Positions 19,787 to 25,994 of a DNA stretch of 64,000 nucleotides are shown here, piece by piece (the first letter of the stretch is position 1; the number at the start of each line of letters is the position of its first letter). The DNA is from an uncultured Pelagibacteraceae bacterium (lineage in GTDB: Bacteria; Pseudomonadota; Alphaproteobacteria; Pelagibacterales; Pelagibacteraceae). The position numbers and the translations under genes are program-made. The notes below the pieces were generated by a model. The model was not told where the DNA came from. It searched no databases and saw only the letters and a program-made list of their open reading frames with translations. The stretch spans positions 640 through 64,639 of the forward strand of contig CACHTB010000001.1 in assembly GCA_902582735.1 (NCBI GenBank). The letters are read 5' to 3'.

Positions 19787-20832
19787 TGGCAACAATTAAA
19801 ACAAAAAGAGATAGAGTAAAATTTGCATCTGATAATGTTACAGGAGCATGCCCAGAAGTATTAGATGCCATTTTAAAAGCCAATGATGGAGATAGAACTC
19901 CATATGGTAATGATGATCTATCAAAAAGTTTACAAGATAAATTTTCAGAAATATTTGAAAAAGAAGTAATTGTTTTTCCAACGTCCTCAGGAACTGCAGC
20001 TAATGCACTCGCGTTATCTACAATGACACCTTCATTTGGAAACATTTATTGCCATAGACTTTCACATATCAATGTGGATGAGTGTGGAGCCCCAGAATTT
20101 TACACAGGTGGAGCAAAATTAGTTAATCTTAATGGAATAAATGGAAAAATTACAGCTGAGGAACTTAACAACTCAATAAGTGGAAAGGATATTGTTCATC
20201 ATACACAACCTTCATCTGTAAGTATCACACAACTGTGCGAAACAGGAGAAGCTTATAATTTAGATGAAATAAAAAATATTTCTGAAGTAGCACATAAACA
20301 TAAACTAAATATTCATATGGATGGAGCTAGATTTGCTAATGCTTTGGTTTCATTAAATTGTAGTCCAGCAGAAATGACATGGAAATCAGGTATTGATGTG
20401 CTTTCATTTGGAGCCACAAAAAATGGATGTTTGGCAGCTGAGGCAATAATATTTTTTAAACCAGAATTAGTAGGTAATTTACCTTTTTTAATGAAAAGAG
20501 CAGGGCATTTATTATCAAAAATGAGTTTTGTCTCCGCACAATTAGATGCATACATTTCAAATGATGTTTGGATAAAAAACGCTAAACACGCAAACGCAAT
20601 GGGGAAAAAACTAAGCCAAGGTTTAGAACAGCATAAAAATATAAAAATTGCATATCCAACAGATGCTAATGAGATATTTGTAAAAATGCCTAAAGAAATA
20701 ATTGATCAACTTAACTCAGAAGGCTACACCATAAACGATGATGAGTGGGATGATAATGCTGTGAGATTAGTGACAGCATGGAACACAGATCCAACTGATG
20801 TTGATACTTTTTTAAACTATATTAAATCTTAG
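19786..20832 (+). CDS. ltaE: Low-specificity L-threonine aldolase
   Basis: FASDN, GTAAN, HMDGARFANA, SFGATKNG (PLP Lys). Confidence 0.9.
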   Translation: MATIKTKRDRVKFASDNVTGACPEVLDAILKANDGDRTPYGNDDLSKSLQDKFSEIFEKEVIVFPTSSGTAANALALSTMTPSFGNIYCHRLSHINVDECGAPEFYTGGAKLVNLNGINGKITAEELNNSISGKDIVHHTQPSSVSITQLCETGEAYNLDEIKNISEVAHKHKLNIHMDGARFANALVSLNCSPAEMTWKSGIDVLSFGATKNGCLAAEAIIFFKPELVGNLPFLMKRAGHLLSKMSFVSAQLDAYISNDVWIKNAKHANAMGKKLSQGLEQHKNIKIAYPTDANEIFVKMPKEIIDQLNSEGYTINDDEWDDNAVRLVTAWNTDPTDVDTFLNYIKS

Positions 20833-21060
20833 TTAGCTTGGATTTTCCTTTAAAAATTCAATATACTTAATTACATCATCTAACTGATCATCAGGTATAT
20901 CTTTGTAACTAGCATTAAATTTACTTTTCACACAAATTGCAACATGAGCGTAGGGGTTTCTTCCTTTAGGATGATTTGGGTGATCAGGTAATTGTCCCAC
21001 CAAATAATCGCCAGCTTCCTGAATAATTTTCCAGAGTTTACTTGCGTTTTCTTTGTTCAT
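20833..21060 (-). CDS. 75-aa hypothetical protein; intact target gene of the tandem elements
   Basis: Clean ORF whose stop abuts ltaE; its first 20 codons recur at 23204-23263 and 24528-24587. Confidence 0.85.
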   Translation of the reverse strand: MNKENASKLWKIIQEAGDYLVGQLPDHPNHPKGRNPYAHVAICVKSKFNASYKDIPDDQLDDVIKYIEFLKENPS

Positions 21061-21085
21061 ACTACTTCAAACCTTGATTTATCTC
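21001..21085. repeat. Junction repeat copy 1 (codons 1-20 plus ~25 bp upstream of the 75-aa gene)
   Basis: CAAATAATCGCCAGCTTCCTGAATAATTTTCCA...; coding 60 nt are 58/60 identical to copy 2 and 50/60 to copy 3. Confidence 0.95.
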
Positions 21086-21089
21086 TTCC

Positions 21090-21110
21090 ATTTCTAGTCC
21101 TATTTCTAGT
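21090..21110 (+). repeat. Tandem ATTTCTAGT x2 (12-bp period), left end of element A
   Basis: At 21090-21098 and 21102-21110. Confidence 0.85.
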
Positions 21111-21124
21111 ATCCTATATTATCC

Positions 21125-21130
21125 TATAAT
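21125..21130 (+). promoter_or_regulatory. Putative -10 box for a leaderless endonuclease transcript
   Basis: TATAAT 6 nt upstream of ATG 21137, no Shine-Dalgarno. Confidence 0.4.
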
Positions 21131-21136
21131 TTATAT

Positions 21137-22015
21137 ATGACTATCAATAGAAGAAGAGCGCCATCAAGTAGAATATCAAGTGAAAAAAAAAGAAAGGGAC
21201 ATAAGAATGAGGATATTTTTGCCTCGTTAATAAATGGTGCGGTAATAAAAGGAACACAAAAAGGAGACGTCAAGGATAGAAACGAAAAATTACATTCTGT
21301 TAAAAGTGGGAAGAAGTGGCAAATTTTTCTTTATTCTTATTCTAGAATATCACAGAGTTTAAATTTAAATATTTTAAAATATTGTCAAGACTCCTTTCCA
21401 TCAGATTACCAAACTTATTTAAGCGATAGAGAAAAATGTATTGCATTTAAAGAAAACTATATAAAGACAAATGGAAGAACTGCTGCAAAATCGTTATCAA
21501 ATGAAGAAGTTTCAAAAAATATTGGAAAGAATTTATATGTAAGCTCTAAGTATTTTCTTAAAGATAATACTTTGAAAGTTTGTGACACGTTAAAAGATAA
21601 AACAAAATTAAGAAATTTTTATAATGAAGCCTTGTTTAATAATGATGAAGTTGATTATCTAACAATTAAAGACAATCAAAATATATCAGATAATCTTTTT
21701 TTGATATTTGATAAGAATGATGTATTAAATATATTGGTTGAAAGTACATTTGTATCAACATCAAAGGCAGGAAATGTGCCAGAGGATTTCAATGTTGATG
21801 GTCAAAAAGTGCTGATTTGTTATAAACAAGCTTCAGGAAAATCTAAAAATATTATTGAAATTGAGGTAAGAAATGAAAGTGAATCAAAGTATCGGTCAAT
21901 AAGATTTAACATGTATAGTAAAGATACTTTAAGCTTACTTAATAATCTTAACAGTATTAAATTGAATGATAATATAATTGTGTATGGGGAGGCAATTCCT
22001 AAGTTTAATTTGTAA
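21137..22015 (+). CDS. Putative type II restriction endonuclease (PD-(D/E)XK-like)
   Basis: Convergent with a C5 MTase; GH..E...KGDV...SVK fits a D...SxK variant catalytic motif. Confidence 0.6.
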   Translation: MTINRRRAPSSRISSEKKRKGHKNEDIFASLINGAVIKGTQKGDVKDRNEKLHSVKSGKKWQIFLYSYSRISQSLNLNILKYCQDSFPSDYQTYLSDREKCIAFKENYIKTNGRTAAKSLSNEEVSKNIGKNLYVSSKYFLKDNTLKVCDTLKDKTKLRNFYNEALFNNDEVDYLTIKDNQNISDNLFLIFDKNDVLNILVESTFVSTSKAGNVPEDFNVDGQKVLICYKQASGKSKNIIEIEVRNESESKYRSIRFNMYSKDTLSLLNNLNSIKLNDNIIVYGEAIPKFNL

Positions 22016-22020
22016 TTTTT

Positions 22021-23004
22021 TTAGGATGCAATCTTCATAGATTGAGATTTATAATTTTTCAATTGATCAAAAATGTTATTAAAAATAAGAGAAACAAGAT
22101 TAACATCCCATCCATTTGCCAGCATTTTGCATAATTGTTGATATGATTGATCACATAAATCTATTTTTTCATTTTTAAATCCCATTAGTTTAAAATGTTC
22201 AGTAATAGAGTATTTTCTTACCTGTAAATTTTTTTTAATAGGAGGGTGAACAACTCTCATTTTGTTGTGATGTGGTTCAAGTATAGTGATGCTTATTCCA
22301 TCTTTACGAATATTTTTATTATATAAATCAGCACAAGATGGTTCTTTTACTATAAAATCTAATTCATATAATTCTTTTAATCTTTTTATTTGTTTTTGAT
22401 TTTTAAATAATGATTGATCTGGATTTTTATCCAAAAGATCTTTAAAAAAAATAGTTAGTTTTTTTTTCTCTGGGGATAATTTGAACGTAAGAGGTAGGAT
22501 ACCTTTATAGGCATAAATCCAAACTCTTTCTCTATTTTGCGGAATTCCATAGTCTTTGGAATTCATCAATTCAGTTACAACGTCATATCCTAAATTTGTT
22601 AGTTTAGTTATAATTGTTTTTAAAGTTCTACCATGCTTGCTTGTTTTAAGACCTTTGACATTTTCAAGTAAAATATGTTTGGGTTTCTTTGCTTTGCAAA
22701 TTCGAATTATATCATGAAAAAGTGTTCCTCGGGTGTCATCTTCGCCTAGCCCCATTCCAACTTGTGAAAAAGGTTGGCAGGGAAAACCACCAGTAAATAA
22801 ATCAAAATCAGGAATATCTTTGGGTTTAATTTTTGTTATATCTCCAAAATTTTTAATTCCAGGATGATTTTTTTGATAAAACTCACTTGTTAATCTATCT
22901 ATTTCTGAAAAACCAATAACTTCAAATGGTACTTTTGATCTTTTTAATCCAAAAGATGCTCCTCCATATCCAGCAAATGCTTCAAATAATTTAATTTTTT
23001 TCAT
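22021..23004 (-). CDS. DNA (cytosine-5)-methyltransferase
   Basis: Motifs I FAGYGG, IV GFPCQPFS, VI ENVKG, VIII QNRERV. Confidence 0.93.
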   Translation of the reverse strand: MKKIKLFEAFAGYGGASFGLKRSKVPFEVIGFSEIDRLTSEFYQKNHPGIKNFGDITKIKPKDIPDFDLFTGGFPCQPFSQVGMGLGEDDTRGTLFHDIIRICKAKKPKHILLENVKGLKTSKHGRTLKTIITKLTNLGYDVVTELMNSKDYGIPQNRERVWIYAYKGILPLTFKLSPEKKKLTIFFKDLLDKNPDQSLFKNQKQIKRLKELYELDFIVKEPSCADLYNKNIRKDGISITILEPHHNKMRVVHPPIKKNLQVRKYSITEHFKLMGFKNEKIDLCDQSYQQLCKMLANGWDVNLVSLIFNNIFDQLKNYKSQSMKIAS

Positions 23005-23065
23005 TTTTTAAGAATCAATTTATTATAAATCTAAACAAAATATTGTCAGTTGTTTTATCTAATTT

Positions 23066-23086
23066 ATTTCTAGTTTCATTTCTAGT
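23066..23086 (+). repeat. Tandem ATTTCTAGT x2 (12-bp period), right end of element A
   Basis: At 23066-23074 and 23078-23086. Confidence 0.85.
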
Positions 23087-23095
23087 TTCTTGTTT

Positions 23096-23288
23096 AAATT
23101 GATGAGTCTCTGAGCGATTTATTTCAAGCTAACTTTTTAATATCCGCATAAGTACTGTAGAATAGTGTAGCTTAATGTGGATTAGGTTGAACCGCTAATC
23201 CCCCAAATAATCGCCAGCTTCCTGAATAATTTTCCACAGTTTACTTGCGTTTTCTTTGTCCATGCTACTTCTATCCTTGTTTTATCTC
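23096..23288. repeat. Junction repeat copy 2: 108-bp non-coding arm plus duplicated gene 5' end
   Basis: 23096-23203 aligns without gaps to 24420-24527 (92/108 identical); 23204-23288 matches 21001-21085. Confidence 0.95.
23195..23263 (-). pseudogene. Displaced 5' fragment of the 75-aa gene (MDKENASKLWKIIQEAGDYLGD*)
   Basis: Manual translation; 20 codons of the target gene, then GGG GAT TAG from the arm. Confidence 0.85.
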
Positions 23289-23292
23289 TTCT

Positions 23293-23312
23293 AGTTCGAG
23301 TATAGTTCGAGT
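23293..23312 (+). repeat. Tandem AGTTCGAGT x2 (11-bp period), left end of element B
   Basis: At 23293-23301 and 23304-23312. Confidence 0.85.
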
Positions 23313-23390
23313 TATCCTATAAATTCCTTTAACCCAGAACCACGATCGATAGAAGTTTTTTCATCTTAAATAATTTTTTGTTAAATAATT

Positions 23391-24338
23391 CTATTTAGTT
23401 GTTAAATTAAAATCAAAAAAAGCATTATTCTTGAATTGATAAATTTTATTTGCCATTCCACCTATAGTTAATGCATCTAAACCAATACCTTTTGTGTTGT
23501 TATACTCAATTTGAATGCCATTTGTTTCACGATCAATCTTTATATTAAACGGAACAATCCCAATAATTTTTTCTACCCCATGATTATTAGTCATTGTACA
23601 TCCATTTGAACCACTTTTAATCATATCAGTTCTTACAGCTCCAACTCCATCATGCAAAGTTCCATCAGACTCAATTAAATAAGCATCAATATTAGCATTA
23701 GATCCTTGATATGTAATTGCATGAAAACAATCCCCAAGATTTCTTGTCAAACTATTAACGCCAACAGATACTTCTTGTGCATTTGCAGTTCCTGAACAAT
23801 CTACATTTCCTTTAGCATAAGAGGTAGCCCTACTATCATAGGAGTAAAGAGTGCCTAAAGATGAGACTTTCGTTACACATGTTTTTGATGAATTTGAACC
23901 ATGAGCTTCACCAACATTCGCAACAAAATTAACAGAAGTTTTATATTTAAATACAGAGCCTATTTCAATAATTCCATATTTATAATTACCAAAAGGAAGC
24001 ACATAAAAATCATTTGTAGATCCGATTTGATTTATAATATTTTTTGTAATAGTTGCCTCATATCCATTATCATTTTTAAAAAAAGTAGAACAATTTGTTC
24101 TATCAGTAACCAATGAAGTGGTTGGACCATTTGGCTTTGAACTACATAAATCTAATCTATAAAAAGTTACTTTCTGGAGATCTGGAGTAAATACACAATC
24201 AGTAGTTCCAAATAATGATAAAGTTCCTCCATTACCTGTACATTCTGGATCTGATCTTGCTATTGAGGTCCCTGGTGCTGCAGTCGCATGAATTGTAAAT
24301 AGCAAAACAAGTACCATGGCACCTAAAATTTTCTTCAT
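23391..24338 (-). CDS. Secreted hypothetical protein, Cys/Gly/Thr-rich
   Basis: Signal peptide MKKILGAMVLVLLFTIHATA; 8 Cys; no family recognised. Confidence 0.75.
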   Translation of the reverse strand: MKKILGAMVLVLLFTIHATAAPGTSIARSDPECTGNGGTLSLFGTTDCVFTPDLQKVTFYRLDLCSSKPNGPTTSLVTDRTNCSTFFKNDNGYEATITKNIINQIGSTNDFYVLPFGNYKYGIIEIGSVFKYKTSVNFVANVGEAHGSNSSKTCVTKVSSLGTLYSYDSRATSYAKGNVDCSGTANAQEVSVGVNSLTRNLGDCFHAITYQGSNANIDAYLIESDGTLHDGVGAVRTDMIKSGSNGCTMTNNHGVEKIIGIVPFNIKIDRETNGIQIEYNNTKGIGLDALTIGGMANKIYQFKNNAFFDFNLTTK

Positions 24339-24389
24339 TATAAAATTTTATCAAATCCACTAGAATTTTCTAATTAATTTATCTATTTT

Positions 24390-24409
24390 AATTCGAGTTT
24401 AGTTCGAGT
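24390..24409 (+). repeat. Tandem AATTCGAGT/AGTTCGAGT (11-bp period), right end of element B
   Basis: At 24390-24398 and 24401-24409. Confidence 0.85.
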
Positions 24410-24419
24410 TTAAGAGATG

Positions 24420-24612
24420 AAATTGAAGAGTCTTTATGCGATTTATTTTGAGTTAACTTTTTATTATTCGCATAAGCACTGTAGAATAGTGTAGGTGAGT
24501 GTAGGATAGGTTGAACCGCTAATCCCCCAAATAATCACCAGCTTCCTGAATAATTTTCCAGAGTTTCTGCGAGTTTTCTGGCGTCATAACTACTAAAACC
24601 TTGATCTATCTC
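24420..24612. repeat. Junction repeat copy 3: 108-bp arm plus diverged gene 5' end
   Basis: Match to copy 2 at offset 1324, ungapped over the arm and the coding part. Confidence 0.95.
24519..24587 (-). pseudogene. Displaced 5' fragment of the 75-aa gene (MTPENSQKLWKIIQEAGDYLGD*)
   Basis: Manual translation; same length and frame as the other copies. Confidence 0.85.
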
Positions 24613-24636
24613 GAAATGATCTAATCTATGATTTAG

Positions 24637-24894
24637 TTACATTATTTTCTCAAGTTTCCAAGCTTCATCTTTAGCATTAAATTTTGCGTTCCAGTCTTTA
24701 GATCTTTGATCTTCAAATAAGGAATAAAATTTTTCTTCATCAGTGACATTTGCAATAAAAATCATTTTACCTTCACGAATATGTGCCCATTCAAATGATG
24801 ACGTGCATTTTGCAAGATCATCTTTAAACATACTGTATAATTCATCTGCATCTTTTTTAGTTCCTTCATAAGTTGTTGTTCCAACAAAGTTCAT
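24637..24894 (-). CDS. Small hypothetical protein (85 aa)
   Basis: Clean ORF with AAGGA Shine-Dalgarno-like sequence upstream; family not recognised. Confidence 0.7.
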   Translation of the reverse strand: MNFVGTTTYEGTKKDADELYSMFKDDLAKCTSSFEWAHIREGKMIFIANVTDEEKFYSLFEDQRSKDWNAKFNAKDEAWKLEKIM

Positions 24895-24967
24895 TGTTTT
24901 TCCTTTCTTTAATTAATTGAATTAATTTAATAAATTTTCCTTATTATTTTAGTATAATAATTAATAA

Positions 24968-25994
24968 ATGACTAAAGATAAAATTAGAATTCATATAAGA
25001 AATAATCATTGGAAAAAAGGATCTTTGCCTTGTGACTTAGAAGGCGAAAAAAATAGCAGTGTCACAAAAGATTTGTTTGAAAGTAAATTAAGCAAGTATC
25101 CTGGAATAAAAGATAAAATTTCATATTTAATTGACTGGGATGATGATAATTGGAAATCTTCAATGAAAGATGCCGATATCCTACTTGCATGGAATTTTCC
25201 AACAAAAGCTTTAAGTAAAATTGCACCTAACTTAAAATGGATTCACATTGTATCAGCTGGAGTTAATCATCTCTCTCCATTTAATTGGGTTAAAAAAGAT
25301 TTAGTTTTAACTAATAGTAGAGGAATACAAGCAAAAAAAGCTGGTGAATTTGGATTAATGAGTATTTTGATGCTTCAAAACCAAATGACAAGAATAATTA
25401 CTAACCAAAAACAAAAAGACTATGTCACTTTATTAAGTAACCCGATTGAAAATAAACATGTTGTAGTAGTTGGAACTGGTTCATTAGGAGGTTCAATGAT
25501 TAAACATATCAGTTCATTAGGTGCAAATGTAACTGGTGTTAATAGACGAGGAAGAAATGTTGATGGATGTTCGAAAGTTATTAAATTTGATAAAATTGAT
25601 AAAGTTTTGCCTGATGCTGATTTTCTATATTTAGCAGTTCCAGAAACTAATGAGACAAAAGGAATGATTAACAAAAAAAGATTAGATACCTTAAAAACTA
25701 CATGTGGAGTTGTAAATATAGGACGTGCATCTGTAATGGATTACGAGCATTTAAGAAAAAAATTAAAAAAAAATGAAATTTCTGGTGCTATTTTAGATGT
25801 TTTTTTCAGAGGAACCTATAAAAAGAAATTCCAAATATTGGGACACCCCGAATTTGGTAATAACTCCCCATATATCCTCAGATAGCAAAGGAAAGTACAT
25901 TGAAATGGTTTTAGAAAAGTTTTTAACAAACTTAAAATTATTTATTGATAAAAAAGATTTAATTAACCAAGTAGATCCTGATCTGGGATACTAA
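24968..25994 (+). CDS. D-isomer-specific 2-hydroxyacid dehydrogenase; apparent +1 frameshift at T7 run 25800-25806
   Basis: SAGVNH, GTGSLG, VNIGRA, AILDVF then SEEP...TPHISS in the next frame. Confidence 0.8.

Follow-up and report, generated by a model that had tools for sequence, protein, structure and literature searches.

Insertion at the start of a protein-coding gene, where the incoming DNA brings a new 5' end, is known from the SXT/R391 elements at prfC, which are large, conjugative, and integrase-encoding and occur in tandem arrays. Arrays of small promiscuous cargo units with one attC site and a polarised entry point are known from integron cassettes. The locus described here is situated in a 64-kb stretch of SAR11 DNA (G000:C1:640-64639, hereafter the window; the source genome G000 is a 988-kb draft of 56 contigs, 68% complete), in which two small units, A and B, are stacked at the 5' end of a gene for a 75-aa protein. 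Unlike SXT/R391, units of this type comprise 0.2-6.8 kb and carry neither an integrase nor conjugation machinery of their own. Unlike integrons, the array has no integrase gene beside it, the units possess two long attachment (att) arms, and each unit restores the entry site anew. We consider it probable that A and B are integrase-less cassettes with ends like those of satellite-like elements of about 9 kb, excised as circles and inserted by the tyrosine integrase of such a helper in trans. This interpretation rests on the common end architecture, the absence of recombinases from the units, the presence at the same site of helpers with matching ends, the variety of the cargo, and near-identical units in different species.

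In the sections of PMC5704250 that treat them, cis-mobilizable elements (CIMEs) are presented as decay products of conjugative or mobilizable elements that are moved in cis. As outlined there, CIMEs and elements undergoing tandem accretion resemble the cassettes in lacking integration genes, in keeping attL and attR, and in stacking at a regenerated site beside integrase-bearing relatives, and the same likeness is seen for the Dehalococcoides ssrA islands without integration module in the part of PMC3146451 devoted to them. In the cassettes, integration and transfer genes are likewise missing (0/89 cargo proteins, 79/80 units) and attL and attR are kept, as judged by sequence. Unlike CIMEs, however, the cassettes possess a conserved arm type of their own in which the arm architecture is complete, they outnumber their helpers, and they seem to be transferred one at a time; the helper is satellite-like, and no conjugation gene was matched in it. 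The helper fits the plan of the Prochlorococcus tycheposons as summarised in bioRxiv 10.1101/2020.12.28.424599 (tyrosine integrase, primase-helicase, about 9 kb, no capsid), and in both systems a streamlined marine genome acquires variable islands through insertion at specific sites. All 937 tycheposons counted in that preprint encode an integrase and target tRNA genes, whereas here an integrase is encoded by the helper only and the target is the 5' end of a protein gene, not a tRNA gene. VEIMEs (integrative mobile elements encapsidated in virions), a group of marine phage satellites, as portrayed in the main account of PMC9618062, share with this system the association with Pelagibacter, the tyrosine integrase, and the lack of capsid genes; for about 20% of them no integrase was identified, and the borrowing of integrases is put forward by the authors. 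VEIMEs are defined in that account, which describes neither the anatomy of att sites nor a target gene, by concatemers inside virions (PMC9618062). The helper also resembles the Pelagibacter VEIMEs covered in PMC11876622. A preliminary description of the array had not recognised it as a described system. In the literature searched, including SAR11 genome papers to the extent of their accessible text, no description of the site or of the cassette family was found, and VEIME datasets could contain it; the principle, in contrast, is known from CIMEs, tandem accretion, and integrase-less marine satellites.

A repeat finder applied to the window detected an arm present twice and three direct copies of the 5' end of the 75-aa gene with spacings of 2203 and 1324 bp, which bound unit A (2203 bp) and unit B (1324 bp) at the junctions given in the preliminary description. 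Over 60 coding bases, pairwise identities of the copies are 58/60, 50/60, and 48/60. Only the copy at 21001 continues into the body of the gene. The other two change on the minus strand, at the same base as described before, from the core TATTTGG to a common arm, and both truncated copies run into a TAG stop at codon 23. The arm had been given as 108 bp (92/108 identical in the two copies) but extends over approximately 150 bp (118/150). Its terminal block consists of a pair of short direct repeats and, after them, GAGATAAA. A block of like kind is located at the other end of each unit, 84 bp ahead of the core, and the right end supplied by each unit comprises approximately 110 bp instead of the 85 bp reported first. 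The repeats in the blocks are unit-specific, with ACTAGAAAT at both ends of A and ACTCGAACT-like repeats at both ends of B. Four occurrences of the block pattern were found in the 988-kb genome, all of them inside the array, compared to 0-2 in 20 shuffles. A reading of the repeats of B as LexA boxes was dropped due to the fact that the repeats differ from unit to unit and resemble those of helper arms, and a genome search with a dif-like pattern yielded nothing informative.

As already claimed, neither a tyrosine nor a serine recombinase was found in the units or elsewhere in the 64-kb window of this 68% complete genome. No tRNA gene occurs within 6 kb of the array target, and no Rfam match was obtained over 20500-25200. 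For the restriction-modification pair proposed as cargo of A, a family match confirmed the C5 cytosine DNA methyltransferase; the 292-aa partner has no match in Pfam, PHROGs, PADLOC, or NCBIfam and is presumed to be a restriction enzyme from its position. The proposed secretion of the 315-aa cargo of B agrees with its N-terminus as seen by eye, while no family was matched. Since an eroded block lies upstream of the third copy (24528) and repeat blocks flank the adjacent 85-aa gene on both sides in three relatives (L032, L045, and L116), this copy is doubtful as the original host 5' end and is probably the right end of an older third unit, with the 85-aa gene as its likely cargo (Table 1). Beyond it, the 2-hydroxyacid dehydrogenase gene at 24968-25994 is split into two frames (305 and 65 aa, compared to 339-341 aa in relatives), due to either a frameshift or a sequencing error.

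Table 1. Features of the array in the window (plus-strand numbering).
Feature	Position	Strand	Remarks
Target gene, 75 aa	20833..21060	-	Codons 1-20 come from unit A
Core TATTTGG, attR of unit A	21000..21006	-	Putative 7-bp crossover region
Right end of unit A (attR)	21000..21110	-	Replacement gene 5' end and block 21078-21110 (ACTAGAAAT twice, then GAGATAAA)
Cargo of A, 292-aa protein	21137..22015	+	No family match; presumed restriction endonuclease, from position only
Cargo of A, C5 cytosine DNA methyltransferase, 327 aa	22021..23004	-	
Left arm of unit A, cassette type	23054..23202	-	10-bp-period repeats, cassette-specific 65-nt middle, block 23054-23086
Junction core (23203-23209) and right end of unit B	23203..23312	-	22-codon truncated gene start and block 23281-23312
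Cargo of B, 315-aa protein	23391..24338	-	Signal-peptide-like N-terminus (by eye); no family match
Left arm of unit B, cassette type	24378..24526	-	Block 24378-24409
Core (24527-24533) and distal truncated 5' copy, eroded block	24527..24637	-	Likely right end of an older third unit
85-aa gene	24637..24894	-	Likely cargo of the eroded third unit

As predicted by the proposed cassette-like capture, integrase-encoding relatives of larger size were found that carry the same ends. A search with the target protein retrieved L152, a contig from a viral collection, in which the match is confined to residues 1-20. This contig of 9070 bp has a 29-bp terminal repeat and is apparently circular. Right end, core, and arm are directly followed by the gene of a 568-aa tyrosine integrase, and the repeat block of the arm falls within the first codons of this gene. 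A primase-helicase and a RusA-like nuclease are encoded as well; no capsid or terminase and no conjugation family were matched in L152, which combines integrase and replication genes without capsid, as satellites do, a definition not applicable to the cassettes. L235, a complete relative of 8976 bp, is integrated between the two halves of the 75-aa gene. An integrase element also occupies the chromosomal site in L180, is stacked with two cassettes in L222, and lies behind cassettes in L083. The integrase family gave 348 matches at E<=1e-20. In a draw of 400 genomes of the genus, an integrase of at least 58% identity was observed in three (intact in G200, partial in G106, broken in G199), weaker relatives (27-38%) were observed in five further genomes, and none in G000; seven single-contig genomes with arms lack an integrase of at least 58% identity. 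The integrase of G200, 66% identical to that of L152, matches an arm-DNA-binding domain weakly, under the Pfam cut-off. No match to the helper integrase was found among GenBank phages, nor to its profile among PDB sequences.

The same 400 genomes were searched with the cassette arm. Matches were given by 85 at E<=0.001 and by at least 50 at E<=2.4e-10, the latter count being a lower bound as two candidates were scored per genome. Together with the window, 40 regions around the stronger matches contained 46 complete units, and a metagenome scan added at least 34, so that 80 units were examined; 11 non-arm or partial rows were left out before the arm profile was built. The helper integrase is missing from 79 of the 80 units. 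These 79 range from 217 to 6847 bp (median 1981), and tblastx of them against two helpers gave no match. The same architecture recurs in single-contig genomes, and the empty-site alleles and alternative cargo within the same ends that the preliminary description had predicted were both found. Full arms at metagenome and viral loci (n=112, including duplicated metagenome contigs) comprise 15 of helper type, 89 leading into other DNA, and eight left unclassified too near a contig end. Cassettes outnumber helpers by about 6:1 (metagenome arms) to 17:1 (genomes).

The cargo is diverse, with 58 cargo groups among the 77 integrase-less units longer than 400 bp. The cargo with family matches includes restriction-modification genes (of type I and others), a TRAP transporter, peptidases, lyases, and dehydrogenases, and no recombinase family was matched by any of the 89 representative cargo proteins from genomes. 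The hotspot of G125 contains, enclosed by two gene-start copies, a phosphonate C-P lyase cluster of about 15 kb. Ahead of phnM, an orphan gene-start copy with a short remnant of a helper-type arm is present both in this genome (L105:6691-6802) and in the source genome (G000:C43:2088-2188). Several units occupy secondary sites, where the flank mirrors the half-site of the gene body. This holds also for a second recurring site beside a 180-aa gene, at which three arrays begin (L083:8185, L084:8477, and L091:10928). An empty 217-bp unit at a secondary site in G171 (L086:11107-11331) has a duplicated core, and its arm and gene-start copy share one block.

Cassette and helper arms align without gaps and have the core, the 10-bp-period repeats, and the terminal block in common, the identity of common parts across types being 0.71 and 0.68. 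In the 65-nt middle, identity is 0.40 across types versus 0.74 among cassettes. Helper arms hold the integrase start in this stretch, whereas the cassette-type middle, which contains a conserved imperfect inverted repeat, is common to 133/136 cassette-labelled arms and absent from helper arms; it was not found in the helper sequences searched. After L280 had been moved from the cassette to the helper label, one 100/100 branch of the tree splits the two types. The distance from core to anchor is 148 bp in 111/136 cassette-labelled arms and 148-149 bp in 12/12 helper arms, and deviants are mostly off by about 10 or 20 bp, i.e., about one or two helical turns. For right ends the spacing is 84 bp in 74/75 cases. 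The blocks at the two ends of a unit match each other (19.7/25 versus 12.9 and at most 14.4 after shuffling; 71 units).

Near-identical units were observed in different species. A 2012-bp unit is 97% identical between G361 and G175 (flanks 82% and 72%), and a 2358-bp unit is 99.8% identical between G209 and G231 (flanks 77% and 74%). In both pairs identity drops no more than a few bases from the core, a pattern more easily reconciled with site-specific insertion than with homologous replacement, and the single units have different neighbours. The first of these two cargoes is also present in G200, at another locus, where both ends belong to another variant and yet match each other; most simply, this is explained by an exchange in a circle. 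The cargo of A was encountered without that of B in two metagenome runs (X7 and X14).

The 75-aa gene is conserved in SAR11, with homologues named from Candidatus Pelagibacter. Its region was matched in 23 of 36 genomes of the same genus, and full arms are present at 2/20 loci taken from this search, indicating that most sites are empty or eroded. Wherever the gene body was found, the reading frame is intact (50/50 loci). In these genes, conservation of third codon positions is 0.77 in codons 2-20 versus 0.59 in codons 25-75, a difference that continual replacement of the gene start by elements would be expected to produce. With one protein query, 6 out of 300 genomes sampled from the class yielded the gene, each of them measuring 1.2-1.6 Mb, and no match to the protein was found among GenBank phages. 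The structure model consists of three helices with a weak resemblance to ORF6C domains of phage regulators. A regulator identity was not adopted, as all viral matches to ORF6C and regulator proteins have E>0.29, and the ORF6C likeness serves as a lead only. Likewise rejected was the best PDB hit of the fold search, the Stl domain of SaPI2 (Z 7.0, root-mean-square deviation 2.9, 64 aligned), which scores too low for a helical bundle.

The cassettes form a real tandem array and are most likely non-autonomous partners of the satellite-like element family, and we infer their mobilisation in trans. A helper entering the cell or induced in it would supply integrase and excisionase, whereupon the cassette would excise as a circle with an attP made up of right end, core, and left arm. 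It might then travel with the helper in phage particles or vesicles, which is the least supported step. Recombination at the 7-bp core, within codons 19-21, would leave a 22-codon stub and restore the gene with codons 1-20 of the unit, and the restored gene would be the next target, so that units stack with the newest beside the gene body (the 85-aa unit, then B, then A). Cargo could be re-framed by joint replacement of both ends, simplest in a circle, where they form one piece of about 290 bp. The order B before A had been proposed previously. It is the simplest reading and is preferred because the restored gene reproduces the empty target and because eroded pieces, the 85-aa unit among them, are found on the side away from the gene body; it is not forced by the structure, since insertion of A at attR of B or of B at attL of A gives an identical result. 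It is tempting to speculate, albeit on doubtful ground, that SAR11 possesses a gene-shuttling system of its own, in which a single lineage of gene-free miniature att-site frames, down to the empty 217 bp, parasitises phage satellites, that their private 65-nt segment is a replication or packaging signal of the helper, and that cargo is caught by a swap of the whole attP in a circle.

Several observations weigh against mobilisation in trans by a helper. The circles anticipated by the preliminary description were not recovered: free cassette circles were detected for 0/68 testable units, terminal repeats marking cassette circles were absent from the metagenome loci, and no convincing circle joint was present in eight metagenome runs. 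Two arm/junction patterns gave no match among viral contigs. The cores at the two ends of one unit differ in 28/80 cases, mostly in the last two bases, which requires mismatch tolerance or later exchange. Moreover, 26/71 units fail an 8/9 block match because of mismatched or eroded blocks, and many units may be dead. The genome loci were picked with a cassette-arm query, which favours cassettes over helpers in the counts. The arms may contain integrase arm sites, excisionase sites, and a site for a bending protein like integration host factor (IHF), but these labels are an analogy modelled on lambda-type att sites. Finally, the cargo of A also occurs outside this system, in G419 and G243.

In G419 (L312:7202-7463), this cargo (91% identical) lies beside a tRNA-Leu gene, in inverted orientation behind a like repeat block, and in G211 (L294:4454-4643) a repeat block is found at tRNA-Leu as well, with a distant integrase nearby. 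Both loci point to a sister cassette family at tRNA-Leu. A joint in run X1 that goes back 1319 was rejected as a circle, since it lies in the middle of the arm with five foreign letters, and is taken for another mosaic arm.

Among the alternatives, the most resistant is that the units are ordinary decayed islands (CIMEs), once integrase-bearing, that lost their genes in place and are now transferred only along with an intact neighbour or through homologous recombination; we regard it as improbable. Cassettes do adjoin integrase elements in L222 and L083, and the 60-bp gene copies offer homology, but units have passed between species individually, with the core as border and with neighbours that differ. 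A helper-type arm remnant without integrase does lie ahead of the phosphonate cluster in G125 and on contig C43. Independent decay should leave helper-type middles and gene scraps. Instead, nearly all arms share a separate middle at unchanged spacing, and 0/79 unit interiors match helper genes. Common eroded ends and the missing circles are in agreement with decay. Repeated independent decay is not supported, while one ancient decay followed by spread may have taken place.

Mobilisation by a host enzyme, acting on the cassette middle or the core in the manner of integrons or Xer-exploiting elements, appears very unlikely. Its candidate would be the single tyrosine recombinase present in nearly every genome (PF00589 match in 50/60, mostly one protein of about 325 aa), including those where the helper is missing, and the inverted repeat of the cassette middle could provide a site. 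Yet the borders lie at the core and not in the middle, and the cassettes keep the core, blocks, and exact spacing of helpers that use the same site. In the source genome, the sole PF00589 match (G000:C4:30346-31056) is this conserved one-per-genome recombinase, far below the XerC/XerD cut-offs; its gene is situated on another contig without an arm nearby. Misassembly or chance local duplication can practically be dismissed, despite the draft of 56 contigs and the lack of a metagenome contig bridging A and B, as the copies differ from one another, the same architecture occurs in single-contig genomes, and a 2143-nt metagenome contig, possibly from the source sample of the genome itself, matches 2032 bases of A with 17 differences.

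The source of the very large flexible gene pool of SAR11 is an open question. A preprint of 2026 (10.64898/2026.10.07.757358) states that canonical functions of mobility are all but lacking and that the mechanism of recurrent variable loci is unresolved, and a study of 2025 reports 61 SAR11 islands with no canonical mobile elements and one integrase (PMC11796062). Such surveys sought mobility genes, which the cassettes do not have. Cassettes of the type described here would allow the gain or swap of single genes. A named site, a scannable sequence signature, a candidate integrase, and a candidate excisionase of about 94 aa are now at hand, which makes mobilisation in trans directly testable. 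This explains one locus and not the whole pangenome; if cassettes are indeed satellites of satellites, a considerable part of the flexible genome of SAR11 would be due to sister families at tRNA sites.

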